Shown piece by piece: positions 4,007 through 28,200 of a DNA stretch of 64,000 nucleotides (positions are counted from its first letter, which is position 1; each line of letters begins with the position of its first letter). A program made the position numbers and the translations under genes. Origin of the DNA: a virus; IMG/VR virus record IMGVR_UViG_3300010389_000003, positions 1 to 64,000 of that record; one strand, given 5' to 3'. Below the pieces are notes generated by a model that ran no database searches, had not been told where the DNA came from, and was given only the letters and a program-made list of their open reading frames with translations.

Positions 4007-5266
4007 ATGACTGAAATTACATCCGTATCTTCTTTTGTAATAGAATCAAGGCCCCGCCTTGTTAAGGGCGATATTAGAGACACGCCCCAAAGAGCTGGTA
4101 CGATAAAAGAAACACCAAGTTCGGGCGATCTAGGTCTAGGATTGACTGACAGACTATACTTAATCGGGCATGCAGACGGACTTGAGATAAATGATCCATA
4201 TCAAGTGGCCAATGTTCAGGACCTTATTAATATTTTGGGTGCTGACACAGACTCCCCCCTACTGAGGGGGTTCTTTGATGTTTACAATGAGGGGGCACGA
4301 GATATCTGGCTGGTTGCTGCAGCCCCAATGGATGAATATATCGCAGACCAATCCGATCGTAACGTAGCTTATGATCATCTTGGTGATCAGACCTTTTACG
4401 AAACATATTACGACAGGTTGACTACCACCTACTCTATATTGCGAGACTTTACTGAACCAGAGATCATAGTTCCTCTAGAGGCTCCGATGTATTACACCGC
4501 CGGTGTAGATTTCCTGACTCAGCTATCAGACCACTGCCAAGACGCAATAGCGTGGACCGGCACGGTCAGACTGGGGTTTATCGGTACTCGAATCACGGAT
4601 CAGTCATCATCAGACATAACGGCAATAGCTGCAGACAGCAGACTTGATACGATAGCTGCAACAGCTGGCGGCAAGTTTGTTTTGGTGTTGGGCGGCGAAG
4701 TCTCAGTGAGTCACCCACAGGTAGACGTTGCTTGGTCCTCAAGTGCGGCAACAATAGCTGCTGGAGCACTATCCGCTGCCCGGATTGACAGAGCACTCAT
4801 GCACCTCAAGTTCCGTAGTGTCATGTCCCCATCAGCGGCAAGTTTGACGAATGATCAGCTGAGTACCCTTGCTCTCAAGAAAGTCAATTGGATTGGTCGA
4901 TCTACAATTGGGGAGCGAGGTGTGCCATATCAGACACATGCCAAAACTGATAATACATTGACATCGAGAAATGATGCTCTGTGGGCTGTTTCTCATATGC
5001 GGATATTATCAAAGGTGATCAATAATATACACGCAATCGGTAGCGGCTTCATCGGCAGCATTGGATACCCGAAGCTTCAGCAAGATGTTGAGCTTTATTT
5101 AAGATATCTGGTGACAGATGATATACTGAAGGACTACAACCTAACAATATACAGAAAAGAGGAAGACCCTAACACAGCAGTGGTAGATGTGAATCTTATC
5201 ATATATGGCACTCTGCGTGAACTTTTCTTGAGTGTTTCGGTTGGCAATAAGACCATGGTTTCCTAG
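4007..5266 (+). CDS. Tail sheath-like protein (minor paralog)
   Basis: C-terminal FIG...LQQDVELYLRYLV...VDVNLIIYGTLRELFLSVSV resembles the sheath C-terminal domain and parallels the end of the 6360 protein. Confidence 0.7.
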   Translation: MTEITSVSSFVIESRPRLVKGDIRDTPQRAGTIKETPSSGDLGLGLTDRLYLIGHADGLEINDPYQVANVQDLINILGADTDSPLLRGFFDVYNEGARDIWLVAAAPMDEYIADQSDRNVAYDHLGDQTFYETYYDRLTTTYSILRDFTEPEIIVPLEAPMYYTAGVDFLTQLSDHCQDAIAWTGTVRLGFIGTRITDQSSSDITAIAADSRLDTIAATAGGKFVLVLGGEVSVSHPQVDVAWSSSAATIAAGALSAARIDRALMHLKFRSVMSPSAASLTNDQLSTLALKKVNWIGRSTIGERGVPYQTHAKTDNTLTSRNDALWAVSHMRILSKVINNIHAIGSGFIGSIGYPKLQQDVELYLRYLVTDDILKDYNLTIYRKEEDPNTAVVDVNLIIYGTLRELFLSVSVGNKTMVS

Positions 5267-6359: not shown

Positions 6360-7673
6360 GTGGCTCTTCCTGGAGTGTCTACAGTAATTAAAGACCGGTT
6401 TTATAGTCTGTCAAGGACGAATATCCCCACCGGTCCGCGCGTTGCTATTATTGGTCGTCGTACTATTAGTGAATCTTCGGATGTAAACACTGATGGGACC
6501 GAAACCTATATCAATAATGCCACCGCGGTTACTGATGTTGATCCGTATAACGCAGCCGATGAGCAGAGCGTTATCCAGATCTTTGGGTACGGCTCAGACG
6601 TACATCGGGGATATATTGAAGCGATTGCAGGTGGAGCCTCAAGGGTAACACTCATTGCCCTGCCATCTGATACTACTTTTAATCACACGGATGGTACGAT
6701 CGAATCTGCCACCTACACCGCATTGATAGGAAGCAACACGCTTTTTGACGATGTATTTTCTGCTGCAGAGTCTGCACGGGCAGATATCATTGTCCCGTGG
6801 GGCCGTGGTTCTGGCACTACCGAGTTCCAAAGCCCAGCCACACCGGGTGATGACACTGAGCTAGGCTTCCATGCTGATAACTCAACGGTGTTTGTTAACA
6901 GCTGGCTAGCCAAGGTTGCCAGGAAGTGCAAAACCATTACGGCTAATTCGCACCCATGCTTTGCTGTTATGGGTATTGCACCCTATATCGGTGCAGCTAC
7001 GGCGAATGGTGGTATGACACCGGCAGCTGTACAGGGTCACATTGGTTCCGCTGGAATGGCCTCTCTCATTGAGCGAGATAACAGTAACCTAGATAATGAT
7101 GGCGTTTATGTTTCTGTTGTTGCAGCAGAAATTCGCCCGGTTGGATACAACGCCGCGAGCAATCTCGGCTACTCAAACGGTGCAGCCATGTATGCTGGTG
7201 CTATCGCAGCGCTAGATTCGTGGTCTGCTCCCACCGGCAAGGTTGTGTACAACGTGGAATCACTGCGTTACAACCCAACCAGAACACAGCAAAATGCGAT
7301 GATCGCAAAGGGTGTTGTCCCTATAGCGCTTGACGCAAACCGTATAGCACGCTGGGTTGATGCTTTGACATTCAGCAAGCCGCTATCAGACTACACTCGT
7401 CTAACAACCCTAAGAATCGTTTTCGATTCTGTCCTTATGGTTCGTTCTGTCTCACAGAAGTTCATTGGCGAGGCTTCAAACCTACAGGCACGCAACTCTC
7501 TCGAAACAGCAATCACCACAGGCTTGCGCACGATGCAGCAAGAAGGGTCTTTGATTTCGAGTGACTTTACAGTAAGATATGTATCAGCGGACAACGAAGC
7601 ACTGATTGACCTAGTGCTTCGCCCTGCATTCGAGCTTCGTAACATCGAAGTGTCAGTAAGCGTCCAACTGTAA
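6360..7673 (+). CDS. Major tail sheath protein
   Basis: N-terminal ALPGV; C-terminal LTTLRIV...KFIGE...RNSLETAI...LRPAFELRNIEVSVSV; GGAGG RBS; followed by the tube gene. Confidence 0.88.
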   Translation: MALPGVSTVIKDRFYSLSRTNIPTGPRVAIIGRRTISESSDVNTDGTETYINNATAVTDVDPYNAADEQSVIQIFGYGSDVHRGYIEAIAGGASRVTLIALPSDTTFNHTDGTIESATYTALIGSNTLFDDVFSAAESARADIIVPWGRGSGTTEFQSPATPGDDTELGFHADNSTVFVNSWLAKVARKCKTITANSHPCFAVMGIAPYIGAATANGGMTPAAVQGHIGSAGMASLIERDNSNLDNDGVYVSVVAAEIRPVGYNAASNLGYSNGAAMYAGAIAALDSWSAPTGKVVYNVESLRYNPTRTQQNAMIAKGVVPIALDANRIARWVDALTFSKPLSDYTRLTTLRIVFDSVLMVRSVSQKFIGEASNLQARNSLETAITTGLRTMQQEGSLISSDFTVRYVSADNEALIDLVLRPAFELRNIEVSVSVQL

Positions 7674-11263: not shown

Positions 11264-14200
11264 ATGGTAGTCAGAAGTGAGGGCCCCCTATATAATATAG
11301 GTTTCGGCCATTATCAAAGACCTCAGACTGATAGGTTCCAAGAAGAAAGCGTCATTGGCCCCAATCAAGAGTCAGGCTTAGTAGCCAAGGCAATGCATGG
11401 CAATCCGGTCATGAGTTTCTTGGCCGCTTCTGCAGCGACTCTCGTCGGCATGGGCGTTGCCGGTAAACTGGTCAAGCAGGGCGGCATAAAGATCGGCATT
11501 GCCGCATCTAATTCCAGCAAGCCTAGAGTGAGAGAGCTGGTCAAGACATTCAGGGATATCCAAGGTACCCTTGACGATATGGAAGGCGTCAGCAGGATTT
11601 TTGCCGACCCTGACGACCCCATGAAGCTTTTTGCCCGAGAGGCCGATGGTTCATACAGGGGCGATACAACTAAGATAGTCAGGGGCTTCCATATCACCCA
11701 GGGCGAACGTGAAGCAGCTCGTGCTGCTGGTGAGAATAAACTCCCTATAGAATGGGGCATAAAAGACGAGATCCAACAGAGGCTAGTGTCACAGGCCAGG
11801 CGCCTGCCTTATGAACTCCCCGCTGCGTACCTTACTCAGCGTGCTGTTGTAGATCCACTTTTTGGCGGCGAAAAAGAGAATGATGTCAATTGGGCTAACC
11901 CAGTAGATGTCATTACAGACTTTGTAGACCAGAGCGTTAAGAACTTGATGTTTATGATCGGCCCATTCGAGGCTGGTCAAGGCGCTGCGGCACATTCATT
12001 CCGTCGTCTTATGACGTACGGCGATGGCATGACAGCCTTCGACCCAAGAACAATGCGCAATGCCAAGACAGCGGTAACGCTGCAGGCATCGATGCAACAG
12101 GTAGGTCATGACGCGTCCAAGTTGATGGACAAAGCGCTCAAGTTCTCTTCACAATTAACCGGCGCATTCGCAACCGGCGTTGAAGAGGCTGCCCGAAAGC
12201 GGGTTGGAGTTGTAGACTTACTGCACCAGATGCGTAATGGTGACTACAAAGCTGCCTTGCGTCAACAAGAGGGTTTGGCTAAGAAGGCTCTTTTTGTTGG
12301 CGACAACATACCCGGAACCCTTGGCGGTATGGTCACCGGTGCGCGTAGAGGCCGAGAGAGGTTCAACGAAATAGGCCAGGGGCACGAAGCCTTCAAGAAG
12401 ATGATGAGGCTGGGTCGAAGGAAATTCGAGGCCACAGCCAGTGAAGCCGAAGTTCGCTCTATCGGCCACACAATGGGTGGGTCCTTTTCTCCCGTAACCT
12501 CATTGGCAGAAGACATCAGGAATATGGGCAGAGGATCCCCAGGTGTCACAGGGAAGGGGTTCACTGGTGATTGGAGTAAGTCAGGCTTCTATAATGATCG
12601 TATTCAGGATGAATATAACAAAAGACTGAAGGATAATCTTCAGAGAAGACTTGAAAATACGATGGAAGACAAGGCGAAGGCCAAGAAATTGGTTGATGAC
12701 TTCGCCGATAGGCACTCTGTCGATATGGCAAGAGCCGAAGATACAAACATCGGCAGACGTCTGCGTATCGGCTTGCAAAGCCCTCCGATAAGTGCCGACT
12801 CCCGAGAGGGTTACGTTTCGCAGTTTGTTGCTAAAACAGGCTTATTCAATAAGGGACAACAAGAGCAGTTATCTAGACACCTTCTTGGTGCGATTGATGA
12901 AACCGATAATATCTTCAGGCCAAAAATCAACAATAAGCAGAACCCCCTCAGGGATAATATAGATAGAGACATCCAGAGACAGTGGCTGCAAGCTTATAAA
13001 AATGACATTCCTGAAATGTCTGCGCATATGTTCGGTAAACGTATGCCCGGATATAACTCGTTTGACATGCGAGTCGGTGGGGCAGACCATGCTTATCTCG
13101 TTGACAAGGCAGCTAAGGTCGCCGGACTTGATGTCAAAGCGGGGGCATCTAAGGAAACCCAGGAAGCCTTCCTCAGGAAGATGGGGCTCAACGCAGATAG
13201 TCCTGAGGTTTTGCGAGGGTTCCTTGTTGGTGAGAAGCAGATTGCCAAGCCTTGGCAGAAAGATGGTTACAACGCATTCGGACTTCGTCAGATCACCAGC
13301 CAGCAGTTCCTTGAGCGTGGTTTGCACGGTGAAGATGATGAGTTAGGGAGGATTATCGGTCACCTCTCAAAGAGTGGCGACGAAAGAATCCAAACAACCA
13401 TGCCTGGTATATACGAAACCAGGGGTGGACACATCCTCAATATCAACAAGGCCAGAAGGTCAGGTAGACGTGCGCTTGACGTACTTGCCAACGAATATAA
13501 GATCCCGATCGTAAACTTCAACCCTCTAGGGCTAGCAAACTACGGTCGTAACCAGGCGATGACTGAAACTTCAGTCCTTTCTTACATCTCTGGCAGCAGT
13601 CGTCAGCCATTTGTTGGTGACTCTGAAGGTGTGGATTTCTACATGATGCTAAGGCGTCATGGTAGAAAGAGCAAGGGCGAAGTAAGGGCATTCTCTAAAA
13701 TGGATCCCGGCAAACCACTTGGCGTATTCCAGCCCACTGCGGCTGGTTCTGTTGGCCTTGCTGGTAGGCAGGCCAGAATCGCTAGCGGAGACCTTGGCAC
13801 CGCTCCACTTAGTGAGGCCCCGTTAGAGGGGACACCCGCACAAAAGGGTAGGCTCAAATCTTTCTTCCTCAGAAACAACGCTGATTACCAGCAGGGCTCT
13901 ATAAAGAGTGTTGGCAATCGTTTCATGGGACGCAATCGTGATGTTAGAAATCCAGTCACGATGGGACGCCTGCTCAGGGGCGAAAAGGTTTCTGATGCCA
14001 GGGGGACCTATCGTCTTGTAGATGGAGAACTGATCAACCTAGATAATGGTAAAGCCGTCGCGTCAAAAGAAGAAGTCACTGATGCCCTGGATGTATTCCA
14101 TAGGTTTGTCAACAAGAACGTTTTCCCCAAATCTCTACATGAGAAAGCGTCAGCAATACCTAGCGCACAAGAAGCGCTAACGAAAGTACGCAATGCGCTT

Positions 14201-17200
14201 TCTTATAGCCCAAAGAGGTCCGGGCAGAAAATCGCCAATAAAAAAGCAGCAATGCTCGCTGGTGAAGACGGCGTCATATCCGTTGGTGACCTAAAGACCG
14301 TAGAGGAGAAAGTATCCTTTGGCAGGGTATTACAAGAGGAGGGTACCGATGAGGTCCAGACACTCTTCAAACAAGGTAGAGCAGAAGAAGCCCGTCGCCT
14401 AAGGCAAGCTCGAGAAACCTTAATTGATAGGCACCTTAAAGATTCATCTGGTCCCGGCTATTGGGATAAGCCGGTTGGAGACAGTAAACAAGGCGCAGGG
14501 TTATCTCGTAGGATCGATGAGTTTACCTCAGACATGCAACAGTACATCCTTATGCGGCAGGGTATATCTGGGCAGAATCAGTTTGCCTCGGTTGTTGCAG
14601 ATCTGGGAACACAGCTGGATGAACTTAGTAGGTCAGGAGTTCTGACCTCAAGCGAGACGGCAGAAGCTTACGCTGCCCTTTTGAGCACGCAGATTCACTA
14701 CGCCAAACTTAAGACCTTCAAGGGATCGAACGATGTCGTAGAGACCGCCGTAAAGGTAATCTCTGGAATACAGGGCGATACTGCAAGGCCTATGCAAAGG
14801 GCCCTTGAGGACGTTGCATCCGGATTGACCGGGGCCACTGGTAGAAACAGCCAAATACTAAACCGTGGCCATCAGATGGCTAGAAGGTATTTAAGCCTCG
14901 CTGACGATTCCTATGAGGGCTTCTCCTATAGTCCATTCGGTAATACAGATATCGTATTGACTCCTAGCCTTGGTCAAGCCTTTAAGCAGGCGGGCGCCAA
15001 GCGAGCCACCAAGAGCGCCCTGGGCGTATCAACATACAGGGATCCTGAAGCCTTCAGTCCCGTTTCCGCATTCAGTTCCCACTTGGTTGACAGGCTAAAC
15101 CGTTACGCCAACGTTTTCGGTGCAGGCCTTGATCCTACCAAGTTCACTGGTCCGATTGACATGTTTGCCAGGGGCATGGTCGGACAAAGGGCCATGCCGC
15201 TTTATGCTGCGGGCGTTACAGGTTTGGCTGCGGATTCCACTCTCGGGGGCCTACTTAACGACAGGGACGAGCAGGGTGATAGAGTCTATGCGCCTTATGT
15301 CCTTGGAAAGGTTGCCACGCCATTTGCCTATGCCCAGGCTGGCATAGCGGGGTTGGTGCCAGGTGGCCAGAATTATGAGCAGGCACGAGCAGACATCTTT
15401 GAAGGTGAAGTGCCAGTTCGGCGCAACCGCTATTGGCCGTTAAATAGAACTCCGTTCAGGGGAGATAGCGTAGAGTACTATCGTCCCAGCTGGTATCGCA
15501 GAATGCAAGCGGGATCAGCATATACCGAATCCGGTTGGGATAACCCAGTAGAAAGAATGCTGTTTGGGCACGACTTCTCTCCATTGCGCCCCTTCGATCC
15601 CTATAGGTTCGAAAAGAAACATGAGCAGGATAGGCCTTATCCTTTGACTGGTGATTATTTCACCGGACCATATGGCCCCGTTACCTCGATCTTGAATGCT
15701 ACTGTTGGCAAGGTTTTGAAGCCGCAAAAAGAAATGCATGAAACCGATACAACAATAGCGCTGAGCATGGGGTATGCACCCGTTGGCGAATCTGGCGCTT
15801 ACTCAACCATTCCTTACGGTATGGCCGGTGGCAGCCTTGGTGCTCAAGGGTCATATAGCGTGCTCAATAGCTTGGGTGGCACCACTGGTGGTGACCTGGC
15901 TGGCGCTAGTATGTCAAGGTACAATAACAATGTACAGACGCCACAGTGGACAGCTCAAGGAATCGTCAGGGACTCTTTGAACACTGCTAACTTCATGTTG
16001 GTCGCTGCCGCAATGGACGGCAATACAATGGGTCCAAATAGCGCAGCTGGAGCATATGGAATACCCAACATGCCCGGTATTATGCCGCCGACAGTCATCC
16101 CCAACTTGACCCCCGTAATGGAGGGTGGATTCCAGATGCACACGCGGGGTGCAGCTTACAGGACTCAGGAGGCCTTGGGTATTTATGGCTTCGGCTTCGG
16201 TGCGGCCAGGACTGCGCTTGGTTTCGGTGATCAGGACTTCACATCCACGGCTCCAGTACTCCAGAATGCAAGTGGAGCTTATAGTCCGACAAGAGCATTC
16301 TGGGACCTTAACATCGGTGGTATCGGTGATGCCCCCTCAGAAACACTGAACCTTAACGTCTCAGAGGTCGTTCGTCGTTTCGTGCCCAAAACGCCATCCG
16401 GCACCAACTTCATTAACCCCATTTCTAATACCATGGGCGTAGAGAACCCATGGCTGCCCGGTGCCAATTACTTCACCGACTTCACCAGAGGCGATCCTTT
16501 CACTAAGATAAAAGAGGGCGAAATAAGACTGCCTGGTCAAGCCTATGAGAGGCTCAATAGGCTCAGCTCCGATGCCTCAGGTAAGTATGGGTTGGTTGAT
16601 CAGCATAAGATACTTGCAAACGTTGCCCCATATTCTCAAGAATTCAAATCACTTGATGCGATGATAGACAGCACCGACCTGTCTCCTTCAGACATGCTCA
16701 AGCTTGAAACAACTCGGATGCAAGTGAAAAGAACAACCCGTAAGAACGAGTTCCACGAATACAGCTACGATCCAAATCAAACAATGAGTGAGAGTCTCAT
16801 AGAGCGCGCCCTGCATATGGATAACATGGTGACGCGCAAGCTTGGTAGACACTCTTCGGCGGTGGAGGATTGGGAAAGGGACAACGTATACGGACCTACG
16901 TTCCAGCAATGGCAGACCCCGGTGGAGAGTTTCCTCAAGCCAATGATTCATGATGCCACCCAAGACAATCCGATCCACGCGGCTGGTCGTGTAGGATTCG
17001 CCATGAGCTTCTTTGGTAGGACACCCACTGCCCGACTTACCGCTTCTGCCGTTGGTGGTCTCAGCGGTGGTCTAGCGGGCTTGTATGGAAATGCTTACGA
17101 AAAGATTACCGGAGACCGTTTCCTGCCGAAAGCAAGAAAAGAGCAAGCAGCACTTGAAGAATACACAGATGTTCTAACCTATATAAAGAATAAGAATTTA

Positions 17201-17788
17201 GAGTCCCAAGCAGCGGCAGCAGGCGACGCTCAAATGGCTAGCGCCGCTGCCCGAGCATCTAAGAGAACAATGTACGGTGTAGATTTGGCAAATGCCAGAT
17301 TGCAAGACATAATGGCTGCAATTCCAAAGCGTAAGCGTGAACATTTCGAATCATTCTTGAGCGCGCCAGAACAAGAAAGGGAGCGGATACTTTCAACTGC
17401 GCCACGACTCGAAAGGCGCATACTTCAGGCAGCCTGGGGGATGAAGGTAGAGAACCTGCCTTCGTTAGAAAACATATTTGCCAATAGGGAGTTGCCAGGC
17501 CCAAACTGGGAGGGCTGGGATGCCAACACCAACATGGAACAGGTGAAAATTAAAATGGGTAACCATATGGGGCTGGATATGTCCCAAATGGGTTACTATC
17601 CACAGCAGGTGCAGCAAGCAAACCTGGTAAACCCATCGTTCCCCATGTTTGGGTTCCAGGACGATCCACGCAATGTCCGCACCAAGTTGGAAGCCCTCAT
17701 GGATGATATGGGAATCCAAGGGTCAGTAATAGAATCTCCAAATCCATTCTCAGGGTTTAGCCTTAATCTCAGTCAGGTGTTGTTCTAA
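11264..17788 (+). CDS. Tape-measure-like / ejected giant protein (2174 aa)
   Basis: Position right after the chaperones; Ala/Gly/Arg-rich helical composition; several hydrophobic Gly/Ala segments. Confidence 0.6.
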   Translation: MVVRSEGPLYNIGFGHYQRPQTDRFQEESVIGPNQESGLVAKAMHGNPVMSFLAASAATLVGMGVAGKLVKQGGIKIGIAASNSSKPRVRELVKTFRDIQGTLDDMEGVSRIFADPDDPMKLFAREADGSYRGDTTKIVRGFHITQGEREAARAAGENKLPIEWGIKDEIQQRLVSQARRLPYELPAAYLTQRAVVDPLFGGEKENDVNWANPVDVITDFVDQSVKNLMFMIGPFEAGQGAAAHSFRRLMTYGDGMTAFDPRTMRNAKTAVTLQASMQQVGHDASKLMDKALKFSSQLTGAFATGVEEAARKRVGVVDLLHQMRNGDYKAALRQQEGLAKKALFVGDNIPGTLGGMVTGARRGRERFNEIGQGHEAFKKMMRLGRRKFEATASEAEVRSIGHTMGGSFSPVTSLAEDIRNMGRGSPGVTGKGFTGDWSKSGFYNDRIQDEYNKRLKDNLQRRLENTMEDKAKAKKLVDDFADRHSVDMARAEDTNIGRRLRIGLQSPPISADSREGYVSQFVAKTGLFNKGQQEQLSRHLLGAIDETDNIFRPKINNKQNPLRDNIDRDIQRQWLQAYKNDIPEMSAHMFGKRMPGYNSFDMRVGGADHAYLVDKAAKVAGLDVKAGASKETQEAFLRKMGLNADSPEVLRGFLVGEKQIAKPWQKDGYNAFGLRQITSQQFLERGLHGEDDELGRIIGHLSKSGDERIQTTMPGIYETRGGHILNINKARRSGRRALDVLANEYKIPIVNFNPLGLANYGRNQAMTETSVLSYISGSSRQPFVGDSEGVDFYMMLRRHGRKSKGEVRAFSKMDPGKPLGVFQPTAAGSVGLAGRQARIASGDLGTAPLSEAPLEGTPAQKGRLKSFFLRNNADYQQGSIKSVGNRFMGRNRDVRNPVTMGRLLRGEKVSDARGTYRLVDGELINLDNGKAVASKEEVTDALDVFHRFVNKNVFPKSLHEKASAIPSAQEALTKVRNALSYSPKRSGQKIANKKAAMLAGEDGVISVGDLKTVEEKVSFGRVLQEEGTDEVQTLFKQGRAEEARRLRQARETLIDRHLKDSSGPGYWDKPVGDSKQGAGLSRRIDEFTSDMQQYILMRQGISGQNQFASVVADLGTQLDELSRSGVLTSSETAEAYAALLSTQIHYAKLKTFKGSNDVVETAVKVISGIQGDTARPMQRALEDVASGLTGATGRNSQILNRGHQMARRYLSLADDSYEGFSYSPFGNTDIVLTPSLGQAFKQAGAKRATKSALGVSTYRDPEAFSPVSAFSSHLVDRLNRYANVFGAGLDPTKFTGPIDMFARGMVGQRAMPLYAAGVTGLAADSTLGGLLNDRDEQGDRVYAPYVLGKVATPFAYAQAGIAGLVPGGQNYEQARADIFEGEVPVRRNRYWPLNRTPFRGDSVEYYRPSWYRRMQAGSAYTESGWDNPVERMLFGHDFSPLRPFDPYRFEKKHEQDRPYPLTGDYFTGPYGPVTSILNATVGKVLKPQKEMHETDTTIALSMGYAPVGESGAYSTIPYGMAGGSLGAQGSYSVLNSLGGTTGGDLAGASMSRYNNNVQTPQWTAQGIVRDSLNTANFMLVAAAMDGNTMGPNSAAGAYGIPNMPGIMPPTVIPNLTPVMEGGFQMHTRGAAYRTQEALGIYGFGFGAARTALGFGDQDFTSTAPVLQNASGAYSPTRAFWDLNIGGIGDAPSETLNLNVSEVVRRFVPKTPSGTNFINPISNTMGVENPWLPGANYFTDFTRGDPFTKIKEGEIRLPGQAYERLNRLSSDASGKYGLVDQHKILANVAPYSQEFKSLDAMIDSTDLSPSDMLKLETTRMQVKRTTRKNEFHEYSYDPNQTMSESLIERALHMDNMVTRKLGRHSSAVEDWERDNVYGPTFQQWQTPVESFLKPMIHDATQDNPIHAAGRVGFAMSFFGRTPTARLTASAVGGLSGGLAGLYGNAYEKITGDRFLPKARKEQAALEEYTDVLTYIKNKNLESQAAAAGDAQMASAAARASKRTMYGVDLANARLQDIMAAIPKRKREHFESFLSAPEQERERILSTAPRLERRILQAAWGMKVENLPSLENIFANRELPGPNWEGWDANTNMEQVKIKMGNHMGLDMSQMGYYPQQVQQANLVNPSFPMFGFQDDPRNVRTKLEALMDDMGIQGSVIESPNPFSGFSLNLSQVLF

Positions 17789-20700
17789 TGGGTATTCATG
17801 AAGAAAATATCAACTTCCTAAAAAGCCACCATTCTCTCTCGGTCATGCGAGATATCGGCTTTCTCAAAATGGACATCGAAGGTGATGAGGTTGTTTTTAC
17901 TTCGGCATTTGATGCGCCGGTAAGAGTCAGTCTGGATGATACAGCTGAGATTCGTAATACTTTGGCTTCCCTGCAAGCAAGAAGAGCTGGGCTTGGTTTC
18001 AACACCGGTTTCAACTTGGATCCAAGGAAGACTCCAAAAGTAAAGCTGGATAGAAACCTGCAATGGGTACAGGAAGCGCTTGGGCTTAAGGTTGGGGATA
18101 AGGTCTCACCCATGCCAGAAGAATATCTTAGGATACATGGAATCAGCCGAAATCAAAAACTTATGAATCTATATCGAGATGGATATCGCGTTCAGCAGCA
18201 GATTTTCTCACCAGATGATCATCATGTGGATGAAGTGATCGATCACCTGAAGAGCAAGTTGATTGATGAGAAAACTGGTATCATGCACGGCAATTTGTGG
18301 AAGACCCAAAGCGGAATAGCAGTGCAACAGGTATACGACCCGTCCGGCAAAGCTCTTTCAATTAATGAAATCTATGGTTTGTTTGGGACCGAATTCGGGG
18401 CCGGAAAACAAATGAGTTTTACAGAACTACTGGGAAAGGGTTCAAAGAGAGCTAGGGCATTGTTCCAGCAGAAGGCACTATCAGCTACGGCAAAAAGCGC
18501 AGACATCAATGTTGCTGTTTTCGATCCCACAGAGATGTTCGGTGACCTCGTAGAAAAGCTTACCAAAGAATACACAGCCTCAGGAACGTACGGAGACGAG
18601 GCAGCTGCGGCAGCTAAAAAGACAGTAAGCGGAATGTTTGATGGTTTCAATATAGTGACAGACATCAAGCTATTGACTGACACATTTCAGAAATCACAGA
18701 ATATTGAAATTGGATTACGAGTGAAAGACTCGCCCACATATAGAATCCAACAGTTGCAGGATCAAGCGAACAAAGCGCTTAGAGCACTGAAGCAAAGATC
18801 TGGTCGCGGCAACTTTAGGTTGACTGGCGGCAACATATTAGAGGTAAGCGGAGGCCTATCCAAGTCGAGCCAATGGTATCGTGAGAAAGTGGATAAAGGT
18901 GTGGTCAATGATTTCACACGTCTGGGTCAGATCAAGGGAGATATCAACCTAACTAAGACCCTTGATGAGCTTGATGAATTGATCGATGAGCATCCAGAGT
19001 TCGCTCGATTGATTGACTTCGTGAAGAACGCCAGAGAAAAGGGTGCCATGATGATCGTCCCAACCACTAACATTGGTACGGAAGCTGGAGCCCTTAACAC
19101 CGGAGAGGCCATCCTGTCCCTCAATCCATACGGGGATAGCGGAGTGGTAAGAACCAACCCCATCGCACTTGCTGCTCATCCCGAGTTTTTTGACATGGAT
19201 CAGATAACAAAGGAATCAAAAGAGAGGCTTTCTCGTACCTACGAAAAACTTGCAGCTGGCGAAATTACAGATGAATTAAGGGCTCATATAGAAAAAACGG
19301 CCGGTATGGTCATGGAAGATATAGATGAAACGTTGAGCACCCCGGCCGCAGTCAGAATGCAGAATGCAATCACTGAAGCTCGCTCCATTATGGTCGGGCT
19401 AGATCTGGGTATGGATATTCGTGCTGACCCAGGAATGATGTCTATGGTTAGGAGTGCAGCCCTCAACTATGAGGTGAGGCCTTCGGGCAAGCCGTCACTA
19501 GTTGTGCCCAATGCTCATCGCGCTCACTTTACATCCGAAGTTACGCTGACCTTTGATTCTGATTACAACCAACATAGGCGTCGGGGTGGGTCAATGTATC
19601 AGGACGTATGGGTTAAAAATGAGGAAACGGGCAAGGCAGGCAAAAACCGCATGCTGAAGAAGAACTATGTCACCTACAACAGGAGAACACACTCTTTCGT
19701 TCTTCCCGACATTGCCGACCCCGAAGACCTAAGCAGGGTGTTGGAGCTTTTCGGTGGCGCTGACTTCGACGATGCTATGGCCGGTATACTAAGGTACGAT
19801 AAGGAAAACAAAGTCATGCGCCTCCTCAGCTATCGTGACCCTACTGCTCGTGGTGAGAATGAAATTTTCAAGATGGGCATAGAAGATGCTCTCGTCAGGG
19901 ATCAGATCACCGCCGCTGCAGCGAAGGGCGCGGATCCCGAATTAACACGAATAGTGGAAGAAAGGCGTCAAGCCTTAGCTGCCATATCACGGCAACAAAA
20001 GGAAATAAAAAAGTTAAAGCAGCAAGAACAAATCATATGGGAAGATAAGCCGTGGCATCACAGATATCAAAGTCTCGTTGATTATCAAGGTGATGGCCAT
20101 GAAGAACTAAGAGCTGAAATGCAGGCAGCATACGATAGAATGGACGCCCTGAAAACAGAGTACAAAACTATTCAACAAGAGTTTACAGATCGCCTCCCCG
20201 AATTTGCAGAAAAGATATTTAGAGCATATGACCCCACAGAACGTCCCGCACAATACGTTGGCAAGGGGTCGGGGGCCCATAGATTAAAAATGGTGATGGG
20301 CGAACATGCGCCTGATGTTGTTGACTTGAAGCAGTTAGCGGACGATGTTCCCACAAGGCAGATCACAGACGCTGCGGAATATATTGAGACTGCGGTCAGA
20401 AGTCAAGCGGATAAAAGAATATTGGGTCAAGGCATTAACTACATGACAATGCTCGACTCGCTGTTCAACACCAAGTTTGATGACGAACTCATCGGCGGTG
20501 CTGGTATCAAGCCAGAGAGTATAGTGTCTTTCCTTCGAGAGTCACTCATTGACACGGTGCAGCAGGAGGGTGCTGGGGCCACTCAATTCATTGAAGAAAA
20601 TATGAAAGAGGGTGGCAGAAAGATTGCTCAACGTCTGGTTGAACTTGGGCCGGATACTGATGTGAAGCTGCCCTATTATCTAGTCTCAGACCAGGCAGAC

Positions 20701-21858
20701 GCTCTGAACAAGATACCTGGGTTCGTAAAAGATGCGATGAACGAAGTACTTCATGATGCGGGTATGTCTTTAGCGGATGTAACATCAACCAGAGAGGGAG
20801 ACACGAGCATCATAGGTGAAGCTATGAGGGCGTCTAAGGAGATCGAAGATTTCAATTCAGAGCTTGAAAGAACACTCAGAAACACTGTGGATTCTGTCTC
20901 CCCAAACTCTTTCCCCATGAATCCACAACTCACAGGCACCGTTGATGAACTAATGTCACGTTTGGCGGAACATAAAGAACACTTTGAATTGGATCTACTT
21001 GAAGACCTCAAAGATGAGATAGACCCATCAGAGAAAATAGCAAGGCGCGCTCAGGTTAACGATGCTCTCGTTCAGGATATATTTGCAGCAGCCAGAGATC
21101 AAGCTAAGGCAAATAAGACAGGTGTGCGTGAAACGCTCCAAGACATACTTTTGATGATGCGATCCCAGGCTGGGGATGATTTGGGCAGCTTGCTTTCATT
21201 GTCGACCAGAGAAGGCCACCATTCAACCAGCCTGAAGACTATGCTGCAGAATGCCTACAACACCCATTTGATAGCTCAGCAGGAACGCCGTGCAATCATC
21301 CATCCTGGTATGGCTTCCGATGTAGACCTTGAGCGTGCTCGCGAATTGGTACAGTCACTTGAGGTTCCTGACGAGATCCTTGGAGTAAGTGATGGCAGAT
21401 TCAGACGAGCAGCACGTGAGACCGCGGACAATGTATCTTCGATAATATCAGGAATCCGTGCGCCAGAGGGAATCAGCCTTGGCGAGGGCCTGCGTAAGCT
21501 ATGGGACATGGGAAGCGTACGTAACGCGACCTTAGCAACAGCTGCTGTTGCGGCTGCCTCAGTTATATATCAGGGCAGTAAAGAAAGGACAGCGGACGAT
21601 ATGGCTGGTCCAGCGTTCCTTCCTGGCGGGTCAGCTTATGAGTCTGGGATGTCAGGCAGTGGCGGATCTGGCATATCAAGCTATAACTTTGCGCCAGGAG
21701 GCGGTACTACATATAGTATAAACGCCAGAGGGAACCATGACCCTTATGAGTTCGCTTCCAGAGCGGGGGCCTTGGCAGGAACGTCTGCGTTTGGTACAAT
21801 AAGTACAGCGCAATCATCATTTTCGGATTATGATAGAGCCATAAGCAACAATTACTAG
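17788..21858 (+). CDS. Candidate virion-associated single-chain two-barrel RNA polymerase (divergent, variant catalytic motif)
   Basis: Ordered motifs KGSKRARALF (217-226), FDGFNIV (284-290), FRL (343-345), GQIKG (380-384), then GGADFDD (656-662) and RDP (683-685). Confidence 0.6.
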   Translation: MGIHEENINFLKSHHSLSVMRDIGFLKMDIEGDEVVFTSAFDAPVRVSLDDTAEIRNTLASLQARRAGLGFNTGFNLDPRKTPKVKLDRNLQWVQEALGLKVGDKVSPMPEEYLRIHGISRNQKLMNLYRDGYRVQQQIFSPDDHHVDEVIDHLKSKLIDEKTGIMHGNLWKTQSGIAVQQVYDPSGKALSINEIYGLFGTEFGAGKQMSFTELLGKGSKRARALFQQKALSATAKSADINVAVFDPTEMFGDLVEKLTKEYTASGTYGDEAAAAAKKTVSGMFDGFNIVTDIKLLTDTFQKSQNIEIGLRVKDSPTYRIQQLQDQANKALRALKQRSGRGNFRLTGGNILEVSGGLSKSSQWYREKVDKGVVNDFTRLGQIKGDINLTKTLDELDELIDEHPEFARLIDFVKNAREKGAMMIVPTTNIGTEAGALNTGEAILSLNPYGDSGVVRTNPIALAAHPEFFDMDQITKESKERLSRTYEKLAAGEITDELRAHIEKTAGMVMEDIDETLSTPAAVRMQNAITEARSIMVGLDLGMDIRADPGMMSMVRSAALNYEVRPSGKPSLVVPNAHRAHFTSEVTLTFDSDYNQHRRRGGSMYQDVWVKNEETGKAGKNRMLKKNYVTYNRRTHSFVLPDIADPEDLSRVLELFGGADFDDAMAGILRYDKENKVMRLLSYRDPTARGENEIFKMGIEDALVRDQITAAAAKGADPELTRIVEERRQALAAISRQQKEIKKLKQQEQIIWEDKPWHHRYQSLVDYQGDGHEELRAEMQAAYDRMDALKTEYKTIQQEFTDRLPEFAEKIFRAYDPTERPAQYVGKGSGAHRLKMVMGEHAPDVVDLKQLADDVPTRQITDAAEYIETAVRSQADKRILGQGINYMTMLDSLFNTKFDDELIGGAGIKPESIVSFLRESLIDTVQQEGAGATQFIEENMKEGGRKIAQRLVELGPDTDVKLPYYLVSDQADALNKIPGFVKDAMNEVLHDAGMSLADVTSTREGDTSIIGEAMRASKEIEDFNSELERTLRNTVDSVSPNSFPMNPQLTGTVDELMSRLAEHKEHFELDLLEDLKDEIDPSEKIARRAQVNDALVQDIFAAARDQAKANKTGVRETLQDILLMMRSQAGDDLGSLLSLSTREGHHSTSLKTMLQNAYNTHLIAQQERRAIIHPGMASDVDLERARELVQSLEVPDEILGVSDGRFRRAARETADNVSSIISGIRAPEGISLGEGLRKLWDMGSVRNATLATAAVAAASVIYQGSKERTADDMAGPAFLPGGSAYESGMSGSGGSGISSYNFAPGGGTTYSINARGNHDPYEFASRAGALAGTSAFGTISTAQSSFSDYDRAISNNY

Positions 21859-22246: not shown

Positions 22247-25200
22247 ATGACAGAATCGGAAATGTCAGCTGACGACCTTCGAGACATTGTCATCAATAGG
22301 TTGCCACCCGATATAGTCGGAGGCACTGTTGAATGGCAATTCACCCCCAATTGGGATCTGCTGAACGTCTCCGAAGAGGACCTGGGCTACGTGGGGATAG
22401 GCACAGGCCGGATAAGCGAAACAAGGGTCGACGAACTCCGTGCTGAGTTAGAATTAAAGTTTGGCTATCTTGTCAATAACTGGGAACTCATTGTATTCGG
22501 TTTAGATAATTTTAACTATGATAATCTTCCTGCAGATGTAGCCGCAGCGATTCAGCTTTTGGGTGTGGTGAGGGTCCAGGAGCCAGCATTATATCAATTA
22601 GCCAGCATGGTATGGCCTGGATTGGCTGCACTGGTGGCCAAATATGATACGTGGCGTAGTGAACAACTGCCCCTTGTTGAACAGGCCCTTGCTTCGGGCA
22701 ACGCCAGCATGGAGGAACAGTTGGCCCGAGCATTCAACAGGGAAGGCGAAACTGCGTTTACGGTTAAGATCGGTGAGGACGTTAGTCAGAACCTGATAAA
22801 CGAAGCCCTTGAGGGTACCGAACGCGAGAATGTGGAGCCTGCGACTTCTCTTCCTTGGGAGCTTGCTTTGGGGGCGTCGCGTTTTGCCATTCCTCCACTA
22901 AATATATCTGTTAACTCCAGATTCAAAGTTACCAACGTGTCCGGTGGGGCAATACGTCAAAGGAATACCCCAAAGTTCAATACCGGTCATTCGGAAACCG
23001 TTGTCAACGTCACTCTCTATTTTCCTAATCACGAATCGATATGGGGTTTCGAGGGCGAGGGAGAACTTGATATAGATTTCGATAACGACTCAGAAGAGAA
23101 GGTGGACAGGTTCCTCTCTTCATTGAGGGGACTTGTAGCTGCATTCAAATATTCGCCATTCCTTCCGCTCAAGAATCAATATCTCAATAGCACATTCAAT
23201 ATGACTGGCGCAACCCTTCAGTCAATGTCGATCCAGACCCTTGAGGGCTTCCCCTTCGTCTTAGCTGTGAACCTCACGCTTTTGAAGTTCAATCACAAAG
23301 CATACCTGCCAATGATAAGGGACTTCAATGAGGCAATACATTGGGGCCGATATCGTCAATATATGGGCAGAGCTGCTGAGCACATCTCTACAACTGTTGG
23401 CAGGGGCTTCTTGGATGCTAGTTACAAAAAGTACTTGAACCCCATGGAAGTTGGCGCAGCCAAGTCCTTTGGAACAGAAGTGTTCACCGATGATGGTGGC
23501 AGCTATGTTCTTGATCTTGGTAAATCGGAAGAGTTCAAATACAAGAACACCTATAGCAAGCTTCAAGAATTTAATGACGGACGACATTTTCAATTGTACT
23601 TCCCTCGGAATACGATTTCAGACGTTTTCGCTCCAGACATCGCAGACTTCAGGACCCCAACAGAAGATAATTATACAGACCTGAACCAAAAAGATATGTG
23701 GGAAGAGTTGATGACCGGCCTGGGATTCGATGTCATCGATCCGCTTAATACGGACTTTGAATACGAAGGTGTCGCCAACTACGCTAGGTACATTCGCGAA
23801 TCCAGCCCCATGACAGACCTTCAGAAGATGATTGAGTGGCTAGATCGGGTACAGTCCGCAACAGCCGATCAGGCCAGCAAAGCCCTTTTTGACCAGTATG
23901 TGGAAGAGTACATCGAAATAGAAAGAAGGAAGAAGGGCTCAATTGAACAGAATTATGAAGACGAGCTAAGAGAGCGACTGCAACGAGAGTGGTATGCTCT
24001 TGTTTTCTTTGGGTTTAGGGATACTCCGTATATCCAATCACTCCTAAACGGAGCCGAGGTAACTAGCACCGGTGACATCATCAAAGAATGGCAAGTGCCG
24101 ATGGAACAGATGCAGGTTGATTGGAGCAAGGTTATCGTTAACGGCGTGTCTGTTACGATGTCAAATAACATTGCTCGACTACAGCTTCAAATGCAGGACG
24201 AACCAGTACATCAGCACATCGGTGGTAAGGATACGGTGGTCAATGTATCCATGACAATCATCGGTGAAGAAGAGCTTGTCTCATTTCGGCGTGTCTTTGA
24301 TCACATCAACGGTCTAGCGAGGCTGGAACACGCCCACGGTGTGCTGGGATTTCTTGGAATCAAGAACGTCGTTACAGCGCTATGTGGCGTTAAATACGTG
24401 CTACCTTTGAACTTTGAAGTCGATACCATACCGGGCTATCCTCACGTTTATAGCGTGAGTATGTCTCTTGTTGATTTTGATATATTTCAACAAAAAAGGG
24501 AGCAACTAGATAGCTCTCAGCAGCAACGGCTCATTGATGCATTCGGAAAGCGCAATCCGTTCTTGAGGATCAAGCAGATGTGGGGCGTGTTCAACGCCTA
24601 CCCCGACTTTCCCCTTTCGGTGAAAGATAGCAATGGAGAGACTGTTGGTCATCTGGATCCAGATTTCTATTTCCGCTCCTTTCAAACAATTGATGACGAT
24701 CTGACACACTGGAAGAAGTCTGAATCAAACCGTGTTGATGATGGTGAGCCTGCAGCCAGCGGTACGGTGCCCACCTCACAGTTGGCAGGCGGGTACGGAG
24801 AGCATGGTGAACCTCCGACGACTGCGGTTGATGAGGATTCTTCTGGTGAACGAGCATTCAGTGAGGACTCACCATACTGGAGCCTTCGGGTCGACCATTC
24901 TCTGGGTGACTTTATGGACGAAGAGAACCTCCAGCCCATGATTGGGGTGACCGGAGATAGCCTCGAACTAATGGTTGTAGATACCGAAACTGGAGACATC
25001 AGAGACCATGCACCAGGTGGAATTCTTGAGGAGGACCTTGGAGAAAGGACTCTAACCCAATCGGGCAACCCACTTCTCACACCGTACGCCAACTACAGCG
25101 GCGCCTATTACGATTCAGATACTCTCAACACCCTTGGATTGGATAGCAAGGCGGGATTCAATCCAAGCTCCCAGTTTGAAAAGATGATGTTCGATGCCCA

Positions 25201-28200
25201 ATATCGCGACATATCCGGACGTATGATCAGAGCTTTCCCAACATATATGCTGTGGCTTATTGATGAGGGCGGAAACTTTGCTGGCGTAAAGCTCTTTGAC
25301 AATTTCTATGGTCTACAATCTGTCATTGATTTCTCATTGGTTCGATCCGAAGACATTCTTGCGGACACCCTTATTCTGAATCTTTCCAATATGTTCAGCA
25401 AGTTAACAACCGATGAGCAGGATTTCCTATTCTACGACCCGGATCAGACAGCGCCAGATGGGAGCAATTCCACAACGAATGCAATTGATAATATACGCAA
25501 TCAATACACCAACGCTCTGCGCCATACCGCCGAGCAGCCTCCAGCCTATGTGCAGGAATTAGAACATATCAGACTCCGTCCGGGCGTGAGACTGCATCTC
25601 CGTGCTGGCTATGGTGCGAATCCAAATTCTCTAGAAACAGTTTTCAATGGTGTCATTACCGAAGTTCAACAGGGTGATATCGTAACCGTGGTTGCCCAGT
25701 CTGACGCGGTGGAGCTGAGCCCTTACGTAAACACGGCAGACAAAGATGGGCACAGCGGCAAGATTGATGGTTCACTCAATACAGGTTTTTGGTTGTCGGA
25801 ACCACGAGATCTCATTGTGAGACTTCTGACTATGGGTACATCGGTGGGGAAGGAAGCAATCAGCAGGGGTACCAGGGGTACCATTTTCTCTGAGAGTAAA
25901 TTCGGTATCAAGCACTTTGGTATGATACTCTATGAACCGATGACCGAGATGGAAGAAAAAGCCAGACAGGCAAGAGTTGAATCAGCTTCTTCTGCTTTTG
26001 CACCGGGTACGAACATTTCCGCAATGCAAGAATTTCTAGGACAGGGTCAGGTTGCTGATATCACTAATGGGGTAAACTCCTTGGCCGGTGGGCATCAGGC
26101 ACCCGGAATCGTTGACGCGTTGGCCGTTACCGCTGGCAATACGTTCACCCCAGGGCTTGGTACCTTCTTCCAGCGTAATGGTGTCCTCGATTTGATGACC
26201 AGTCTGTGGGTGAATAGCTTCAAAGAACGAGATTTTGAAATATTCAAACGTAATATTTACCCAGGAAATGGCACAGGGGTAATGCAATTCGCGGGTGTTG
26301 ATACCCTCGACGCGGATATCTATTGGCAAAACTATGCCCCCGCTGGTCTTTCGACAGAGATCAACGCTGAAGCATTTAGTAGGCAACAGGTGAACCAGTA
26401 TCTCAACAACGCACTGAACGAGTCTATCAGAGATGGAGATAGGCTTTTGGAGGGCGAGTTTACGGAAGATGAGTTGGTAGAGTTGCTTGGCTCAACGCAG
26501 GCAGCCAGGCTTGAGGATCTTTTGGCCGCTAGGGGTGGTAAAGCGTTCCAGATACCAACAACTGATGTTGAAACCAATTCTGGGAATCCAGCTGCAGTAA
26601 TAGGTACAGGGATGGTCTTGGCTGGCCTAGTGAACCCAGCGCTAGGTCTAGGGGTAGGGGCACTCGGTCTAGTGGCACATGGCATCAGTTCTCGTAGTCA
26701 AAATCCTATTTACCAGTTCTTGGGCATTAGCCAGACTGTTCAGGATGATGATCTGGCAGGGTTTGATGAGGTGTCATTCCGGGCCCAGACTTTCATGAGA
26801 ACCGTATGGGACATGTTCCAGATTTGTGCTGACATGCTTCCCAATTACATTGTTTCTGTCAGACCATTTGAAGATAGATCAACGGTGTTTTATGGTAAAC
26901 CCCATTGGCTCTATACTTCTGGTGTAGTCCCATTGACCTCCGGTGTTCCGGTTGACAATGCCCTTAAGTTCGACGAGCCCAATGAGGAACAGCGCAAAAT
27001 ACTAGAGCTATTTTCTCAGGTGGCCAATAGACGATCAGACGCATCTGCAACTGACGAGTTCCTTGCCGGTTTGGGTAACTACTCTGATCCGTATAGCACT
27101 TCAATACCAACTGCTTGGGCCGGTGGAGATATTAAATCACTACCATTAGAGAACTCTGCTGGCGGCAAGATACCGCTTGGCAAGCGTAAGGTGATAGCCG
27201 GAATTGAGATGCACCTGCCGACACATGATGGTGAGCCCTCCCTTGCCGACAACCATTTGCGTCATACTTATTTTCAACAGATAGGTTCGATCGGTGGTAT
27301 TCCAGAACTGCCGACGTATTATAGGTATCCGTTTTACATGGATAGAAAGGATGGCCCAAGGGGAGGTTATGCCGGGATATACCAAAGTAGAGAGGATGCA
27401 GAAACCGCTGCCGAAGCCGAAGGAAAGAACTTCTTCTTTGATTACTCCGTACTCAAGGGGGAGGTTGGACAAACGCCGGGTGAACCAGGAGCCTTTGGTA
27501 TCTTGGATCCCGAAGAGGAAGTCTACTATTGCAATATGAGGTGGCCATACTCATCCGATAGTGGAGGCATAAAGGTTGAAGGGCAGACCCAAGATATGTT
27601 CAGACACAAAAGATTGATGGTCTTCAATGAAGACAATGGCAGGATGTGTATTTGTGTTCCCGGCGAATATGGTCCGAATGTAACAACAGGTAAGGATATG
27701 GGTCTATCACCCGAAGCCATGTTTTACCTGGGTGGCGAACTTGTAAATAATAATTTCAGAATGAGACATGAAAAATTGTCTAATCTATATATTGGTTGGG
27801 TAGACGACAATACCAAGCCGGGGCCGGTGGGTGGTTATGCAACGGCTACCACTGTCACGAACGGATACGTCGGAAATCGAAGTATTAGCGATTTGTCACC
27901 GGAACAGATTGCCGCCAGCGATACGTTAATTATAGAAATAGATTATTCTCATTCGGAAGCTTATGAAGCTATAAGTGAACTGTTCGAAAAAAACTCAGAA
28001 CGTATAGCATTCTTGAATGAATCGGGTGCGCTTTATGATCAAAGAGGCGGGCGTAAGGTGCTCATCCAGGATCTAGAGCAATTCGCTTATGATAACTTTC
28101 CTGATGATATGGGCACATTCATCAACCTCTACGGTTGGGCTTTTGAAGATATACATCCAGCGCTCGATGAAGATCGTATTTTTGGCACACGCGCTATCGA

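Follow-up and report, generated by a model that had tools for sequence, protein, structure and literature searches.

The stretch of DNA analyzed in this study (the window) is 64 kb in length and constitutes the first part of the 103,983-bp IMG/VR virus record IMGVR_UViG_3300010389_000003. CheckV estimated this record to be 49% complete, and the phage genome is therefore expected to be about 200 kb in size. The subject of the present work is P0001, an open reading frame (ORF) at positions 17788–21858 of the window that encodes a putative polymerase of 1356 amino acids (aa); P0001, all of its parts described below, and the two genes flanking it lie on the plus strand. The sequence AGGTG was found 9 nt upstream of the P0001 start codon, and the ATG itself overlaps the TAA stop codon of an upstream 2174-aa ORF (TAATG). 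An earlier reading of this DNA (hereafter, the preliminary description) had proposed that P0001 is coupled in this manner to its upstream gene, and that it encodes a virion RNA polymerase (RNAP) with a permuted catalytic barrel. The sequence at the junction bore out the coupling. Moreover, all of the motifs quoted for P0001 were located in its translation at the residues given, namely K217xxK220R221...F226, D285G286, R344, and K383G384, followed by R455TNP458, S570LVVPNAHR578, L623KKNYV, the acidic loop G656GADFDD662 (nt 19753–19773), and Y682RDPTARGE690.

When 1.84 billion representatives were searched exhaustively with HMMER, a family of 21 proteins was obtained, mostly 1150–1440 aa in length and sharing 16–38% identity with P0001. 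A second, word-based protein search using the family profile recovered no further sequences, and pattern scans of IMG/VR with three queries found no relatives. Within the family, K383 was present in 21 of 21 members, and all 20 covering sequences retained K220, R221, R344, G656, G657, D659, D661, D662, R683, P685, G689, and E690. Position 285 was acidic in 20 of 20 sequences (Asp in 13, Glu in 7), G286 was found in 19 of 20, and G384, E432, E918, and D922 were conserved in at least 90%. The two elements stressed in the preliminary description, GGxDxDD and the RxP that follows it, were thus both kept throughout (20/20): the Asp loop reads D-x-D-D, lacking the Gly, in every one of the 20 homologs with coverage of this region, and R683-x-P685 after the loop is invariant. 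The spacing between D662 and R683 was exactly 21 residues in 17 of these 20 members, and that between R344 and K383 ranged from 12 to 54 residues across full-length members. Not all of the residues picked earlier behaved in this way. The Asp, Arg, and Lys picks belong to the conserved set, but RTNP (R455 in 11/21, P458 in 4/21) and LKKNYV are not conserved, and SLVVPNAHR is conserved in part (P574 in 18/21, R578 in 14/21). Eight residues, reported to be invariant from bacteria to the enzymes of RNA interference (RNAi), define the two-barrel RNAPs (PMC2919709); seven of these eight were kept by the P0001 family, together with an eighth that is always acidic. Judged from the aligned sequences, this constellation of motifs is far beyond chance.

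The structure of P0001 was predicted by AlphaFold2 from the 21-sequence alignment, without templates. Two models were obtained, a full model of residues 1–1150 (pLDDT 79.0, pTM 0.77) and a core model of residues 200–720 (pLDDT 81.9, pTM 0.80). Values of pLDDT around the Asp loop were about 80–94, and residues 1–1150 were modelled as globular, not extended. When the full model was searched with Foldseek, the best matches were the RNAi polymerases QDE-1 and RDR2 and the virion RNAP gp66 of a crAss-like phage, with probabilities of at most 0.99 and E values of 2.6e-3 or weaker. In the table of structural matches, QDE-1 (7y7p_A) had a Z value of 8.1, P74-26 gp62 (8f5m_A) 6.9, ZmRDR2 (7w84_A) 6.5, crAss gp66 (6vr4_B) 6.1, and P23-45 gp96 (8h2m_A and 8h2n_A) 5.8 and 5.7, respectively; in all remaining high-Z rows the match was confined to a helical hairpin at residues 715–815. 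The same hairpin dominated a wide fold search with the full-length model and rendered it uninformative. For comparison, gp66 and QDE-1 are reported to superpose over 479 residues at 3.5 Å with 8.6% identity (bioRxiv 10.1101/2020.03.07.982082). In BFVD, three uncharacterised proteins of uncultured phages came first (E values of 9.5e-13, 1.1e-12, and 2e-6), followed by a phage 'RNA-dependent RNA polymerase' and crAss-like proteins. The uncharacterised BFVD proteins A0A6J5NTF7 (851 aa, E 1e-12), A0A6J5M9G6 (1141 aa, E 1e-12), and A0A6J5MEC6 (861 aa, E 2e-6), all from uncultured Caudovirales, share the core fold; those of about 850 aa have no room for the C-terminal module described below and may be non-virion paralogs.

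The structural alignments to the six solved RNAPs were colinear, running from about residue 220 to a point 9–14 residues beyond the Asp loop, on the model side and the target side alike. With the loop at 460–463 in core-model numbering, the alignment to QDE-1 ended at model residue 473 and target residue 1025 (target loop 1007–1011), that to gp66 at 475 and 1377 (loop 1361–1365), and that to gp96 at 473 and 793 (loop 779–783). Because the alignments end 9–14 residues after the loop on both sides, the loops are approximately superposed. Structure prediction and fold searching thus pointed to the single-chain two-barrel RNAP fold of the QDE-1/RDR/crAss/P23-45 type, in that the model places a beta-like barrel, a connector, and a beta-prime-like barrel in one chain that would superpose on solved members of the superfamily. 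Taken together, these data make it highly likely that P0001 is a homolog of the two-barrel polymerases.

The first barrel region (beta/Rpb2-like, 'DPBB-B') was assigned by conservation to residues ∼215–455 (18430–19152) and aligned to the DPBB-B side of QDE-1, RDR2, gp66, and gp96. It holds K220-R221 (18445–18450), D285-G286 (18640–18645), R344 within N342-x-R344 (18817–18819), and K383-G384 (18934–18939), all recognised by conservation, as well as N428..E432. The acidic and two basic residues of a first barrel were found in the expected order as D/E285, R344, and K383, which would correspond to D709, R738, and K743 of QDE-1, an equivalence drawn from residue order and aligned ranges and not from atom-level superposition. 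A helical connector of about 110 aa (residues ∼458–565, 19159–19482), seen in the secondary structure of the model, separates this region from the second barrel region (beta-prime/Rpb1-like, 'DPBB-A'; residues ∼569–696, 19492–19875), which was delimited by model secondary structure, conservation, and structural alignments. In the model, the second barrel begins with a strand carrying P574..R578 and continues with a variable hairpin (604–623), two strands (625–631 and 635–640), a helix (645–654), the Asp loop, a further strand (663–671), and an extra hairpin (676–696). This strand-strand-helix-loop-strand arrangement fits the second half of a canonical barrel, as judged from secondary structure and aligned ranges; the canonical order of elements in a beta-prime-type barrel was taken from the E. 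coli beta-prime sequence. The candidate metal loop itself, G656-G-A-D659-F-D661-D662 (GGxDxDD, 19753–19773), is placed on the DxDxD of QDE-1, gp66, and gp96 by the ends of the structural alignments, and the order along P0001 is D/E285, R344, K383, D659, D661, D662. It is followed by R683-D-P685-T-A-R-G689-E690 (RxPxxxGE, 19834–19857), the displaced RxP element, 21 residues after D662.

Outside the barrels, an N-terminal alpha/beta domain (aa 1–200, 17788–18387) was apparent in the secondary structure of the model and was poorly conserved in the alignment. Downstream of the second barrel, the model contained a long antiparallel helical hairpin (aa 715–805, 19930–20202), which had only generic coiled-coil matches and could be a neck or a bridge-helix-like element. 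It is followed by a C-terminal helical domain (aa 806–1136, 20203–21195), delimited by conservation and the model and lying inside the range of the full-length model that aligned to RDR2 and QDE-1. This domain contains the motifs LGxYxNxRxxxD (879–890) and QExxID, in which E918 and D922 were present in 19 of 19 sequences. Lastly, the alignment revealed a family-wide C-terminal module (aa 1240–1356, 21505–21855) composed of an Ala/Gly-rich hydrophobic helix, the stretch KDRxxEDMxGPxxLPGGSxYE, a GxTY...GxxD stretch, and a conserved end. The Ala-rich hydrophobic helix (∼1244–1262) and the Gly/Ser-rich tail after it, both mentioned in the preliminary description, were indeed seen in the P0001 translation. 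When the module was used as a query, it retrieved P0001 family members only; we propose that it may serve as an anchoring signal for the virion or the tail lumen.

The genes around P0001 form a tail module similar to that of Bacillus phage 0305phi8-36, as the flanking homologs and PHROGs matches (two sheath paralogs, a baseplate wedge protein, and virion proteins) confirmed. The upstream coupled gene (11264–17788, 2174 aa) had been described as tape-measure-like. No recognisable tape measure was found in it; rather, it is a homolog of ORF145 of Bacillus phage 0305phi8-36 (32% identity between its C-terminal half and ORF145, over 70% of the query), which the record of that phage lists as a structural component of the virion detected by mass spectrometry. 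A hydrophobic helix is present at the N-terminus of the 2174-aa protein, which matched nothing in Pfam, PHROGs, or PDB; the protein is conserved at 40–46% identity, far above P0001, and is split into two or three ORFs in related metagenome loci. The downstream gene (22247–31039, 2930 aa) is a colinear homolog of 0305phi8-36 ORF147, a baseplate hub with a lysin domain. Its product has a strong 'endolysin' match (phrog_20474, residues 977–1228) and a weak match to an endonuclease family (phrog_452, residues 2744–2860, E 0.0044). Given that its flanking genes are homologs of ORF145 and ORF147, P0001 fills the slot of ORF146. P0001 showed no homology to 0305phi8-36 ORF146 and no PHROG tape-measure match; an Atlas feature search gave 'tape measure' at 0.77, a weak result below the level of a usable lead, and no other tape-measure homolog was seen in the tail module. 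The family hidden Markov model (HMM) found no members among the slot genes of 0305phi8-36, Moorella phage MTATph1, KLEB27-3, and ME3.

The same arrangement was observed elsewhere. Six loci with family members were recovered when metagenome contigs were scanned with degenerate codons for FGGFD[LF]DD. The family member lay downstream of ORF145-like genes in all six, and a hub-like gene came after it in L020 and L089, the two loci that extend that far. In four of the six loci the family HMM matched two separate or overlapping ORFs (L020:5773-10456, L053:3642-5760, L089:7497-12362, and L104:388-5261), a pattern that points to frameshifting, recoding, intervening elements, or misassembly within the polymerase-like gene. 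Elsewhere in the window, two tandem tail-sheath paralogs (4007–5266 and 6360–7673) are arranged as are ORF137 and ORF139 of 0305phi8-36; by sheath sequence, the nearest cultured relatives are Bacillus, Moorella, and haloarchaeal tailed viruses. Two structural genes of ∼1700 aa each are separated from the baseplate wedge gene by a metallophosphoesterase gene (phrog_20266, E 5.5e-77; 34241–35506).

Several observations weigh against reading P0001 as a polymerase. The Mg-binding loop DxDxD is described as invariant in two-barrel RNAPs (PMC2919709), but the P0001 family has D659-x-D661-D662 with nothing between the second and third Asp (20/20). Likewise, the canonical R-x-P lies about 35–45 residues before the Asp loop (R962/P964 in QDE-1, R446/P448 in Rpb1; PMC2919709), but in this family the segment before strand 625–631 is variable and holds no conserved RxP; P574 (18/21) and R578 (14/21), found upstream, are in reversed order relative to R-x-P. 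There was also no sequence-level link to a known polymerase. Searches with Pfam and PHROGs on P0001 and with Pfam on all 21 members gave no match, searches of PDB sequences with P0001 and the family profile gave only spurious matches to designed repeats, and the Pfam RdRP model PF05183, which detects 0305phi8-36 ORF099 at 1.1e-20, had no match at E≤10 in the whole 104-kb record. Comparison of the family by hhalign with P23-45 gp96 (residues 1–1200) and gp64 yielded nothing, and with ORF099 yielded a sole local match, loop to loop, that was insignificant (E 0.24). No cultured relative was found when four family members were compared by tblastn with 50,697 GenBank phages. In addition, the models are built on 21 sequences only, and the double-psi topology and the convergence of the residues are tentative, being judged from secondary structure and aligned ranges. 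Finally, in 0305phi8-36 this slot holds a tape measure that is unrelated to P0001, and slot position alone is therefore no proof of function. We regard it as very improbable that modelling error or chance resemblance accounts for the fold match, in which case P0001 would be some unrelated enzyme, or a structural protein, that has an acidic loop.

A circular permutation or half-swap, by which the preliminary description had accounted for the unusual motif order, was not demonstrated, as the alignments are colinear through both barrels and the elements of the second half are in canonical order. With only a four-residue turn between the post-loop strand and the RxP strand, there is no space for the three elements that a simple circular permutation would need, which makes one unlikely. 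RTNP was also considered as the canonical RxP and was ruled out by its lack of conservation. What the family does have is a strand-R-x-P-xxx-G-E-strand element after the loop, on the extra hairpin 676–696, that is invariant and locally very like the canonical RxP element, and R683 may supply the active-site arginine. This opens the tentative possibility, which we hold to be somewhat less than even, of a working enzyme with a rewired universal site (a DxDD loop, and an RxP provided by a hairpin after the last strand) that has replaced the tape measure and travels in the tail to start infection. If true, this would make P0001 the first two-barrel polymerase in nature whose catalytic barrel is threaded in a non-canonical manner.

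The same departures could also be explained if P0001 were an exapted, catalytically dead polymerase fold with a purely structural role as a tail-lumen, tape-measure, or ejection protein. In keeping with this explanation, P0001 occupies exactly the tape-measure slot of 0305phi8-36 with no other tape-measure homolog in the module, the 'universal' features DxDxD and upstream RxP are both broken, and the C-terminal hydrophobic helix and tail are conserved. However, dead enzymes lose catalytic residues, whereas the acidic and basic constellation is kept in 20 of 20 sequences even though identity drops to 16–20%; moreover, residues 1–1150 are modelled as globular with no extended tape, and at 1356 aa P0001 is much shorter than its neighbours' tape measures (2434–2537 aa). 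We therefore consider a dead fold improbable, and an active P0001 likely.

Our preferred interpretation, held with moderate confidence, is that the P0001 family comprises unannotated single-chain two-barrel nucleotide polymerases, most probably DNA-dependent RNAPs that are packaged in the virion and ejected for early transcription. P0001 is very probably a one-chain relative of cellular RNAP, with a shortened loop and a displaced RxP, and the phage therefore probably carries its own unusual transcription enzyme. In the proposed mechanism, the first barrel would contribute the acidic D/E285 and the basic R344 and K383, and the ∼110-residue helical connector would lead into the second barrel. 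There, D659, D661, and D662 would hold the metal ions in a DxDD loop one residue shorter than DxDxD, and the R683-x-P685 hairpin, 21 residues after the loop, would replace the Arg-x-Pro normally found 35–45 residues before it. From the tape-measure slot, the coupling to a virion-protein gene, and the hydrophobic helix with its conserved tail, we infer that P0001 would be a late product that is incorporated into the virion or its tail lumen, is ejected together with the DNA, and transcribes the first genes. Delivery in the virion, with packaging and ejection judged from gene position only, seems reasonably probable. Later genes would be transcribed by the host RNAP together with a phage sigma-like protein; an ECF-sigma-like protein of 286 aa is encoded at 84892–85752 of the record, outside the window, and such a factor is consistent with a scheme whereby a phage polymerase drives the initial phase and the host RNAP is then redirected. 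The family HMM found no paralog among all ORFs of the 104-kb record, and this half genome thus contains no second (non-virion) copy. A repeat search in the minus-strand region of small genes at 84–104 kb revealed no convincing shared promoter-like motif.

The template, the product, and the role in early transcription proposed here for P0001 would differ if it were a genuine two-barrel polymerase with another job, such as an RNA-dependent RNA polymerase (QDE-1/RDR-like), a DNA polymerase or primase (PolD-like), or a non-templated nucleotidyl transferase, or if it were not packaged. QDE-1 was the strongest structural match, but crAss gp66, P23-45 gp96, and gp64 likewise all resemble QDE-1 most, and gp66 and gp96 were shown to be DNA-dependent (PMC10770324; bioRxiv 10.1101/2020.03.07.982082). 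A late position in the tail operon, coupled to structural genes, would make little sense for an early enzyme unless it is packaged. Furthermore, the phage already has a replicase of the DnaE type (Pol III alpha; 78575–81928 of the record, outside the window) and a DnaB-like helicase encoded elsewhere in the record. We thus view these alternatives as unlikely.

The P0001 family keeps all eight kinds of universal residue under strong selection, yet has a shortened Mg loop and a moved RxP. If this interpretation is true, it would show how far a two-barrel site can change and still work, and would extend tail-delivered polymerases, reported for P23-45 in 2024, to jumbo contractile-tailed phages. 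As such genes are annotated as hypothetical proteins in these phages, standard annotation would miss the phage's own transcription enzyme. Our literature searches found no description of such a family, and a survey table of catalytic motifs in viral two-barrel RNAPs has no DxDD entry and none of the loop strings of the P0001 family (PMC10770324).

Among known systems, the eukaryotic RNAi polymerases QDE-1 (2J7N, 7Y7P-T) and RDR2 (7W82, 7W84, 7EU1, 7ROZ) belong to PF05183, which also includes YonO and 0305phi8-36 ORF099. Unlike P0001, QDE-1, RDR, and ORF099 have DxDGD with an RxP 45 residues upstream (R962/P964 and D1007-1011 in QDE-1; FRSP upstream of the loop in ORF099) and are not virion or tail genes. 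The Arg-to-Lys spacing of the first barrel is 5 residues in QDE-1 (R738, K743), in contrast to the 12 to 54 of the P0001 family. The virion RNAP gp66 of crAss-like phage phi14:2 (PDB 6VR4) differs from P0001 in its length of 2180 aa, its ∼1600 residues of unique domains, and its origin in a podovirus; it keeps the five-residue DxDxD spacing and lacks a C-terminal module of the tail-lumen type. The connector of P0001 (∼110 aa) is shorter than the ∼140 aa reported for QDE-1 and gp66 (bioRxiv 10.1101/2020.03.07.982082).

A precedent is provided by Thermus phage P23-45, in which the virion RNAP gp96 (PDB 8H2M/8H2N) and the tape measure form a single fused protein (Chaban et al. 2024, PMC10770324); gp96 was shown to be virion-borne and ejected to start transcription, and has the non-virion paralogs gp64 and P74-26 gp62 (8F5M) (PMC10770324). 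P0001 has no detectable sequence similarity to gp96 or gp64. Whereas gp96 forms the N-terminus of a 5002-aa tape measure, P0001 is a stand-alone protein of 1356 aa in which only ∼220 residues follow the globular part (1–1136), in place of the tape measure with a membrane/peptidase extension that follows the polymerase in gp96. The loops differ as well (DxDD, compared with DFDGD or DYDGD in gp96 and gp64), as does the placement of RxP, which comes after the loop in P0001 and 38 residues before it in gp96 (FRNP) and gp64 (NRRP). In addition, the P0001 phage has a contractile tail and a jumbo-sized genome, unlike P23-45. In 0305phi8-36, the slot of P0001 is held by ORF146 ('hypothetical tape measure protein', 2537 aa, found in the virion by mass spectrometry), which is not homologous to P0001 (family HMM E=4, no Asp loop), and a canonical PF05183 two-barrel RNAP (ORF099) is kept elsewhere, near the right terminal repeat. 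Acinetobacter phage vB_AbaM_ME3 is a cultured jumbo phage of the 0305phi8-36-like type, and its gene ME3_36 (L130:18310-23121, 1603 aa) lies in this slot, with an ORF145-like gene on one side and a hub gene on the other. The P0001 family HMM does not detect this protein, and its signature looks canonical, with R-E-P, a GGDHDQD whose first Asp lies 43 residues beyond the Arg, and a hydrophobic strand after that. ME3_36 may be a two-barrel RNAP from a different family that sits in the tail slot, and the phage encoding it is one that can be grown.

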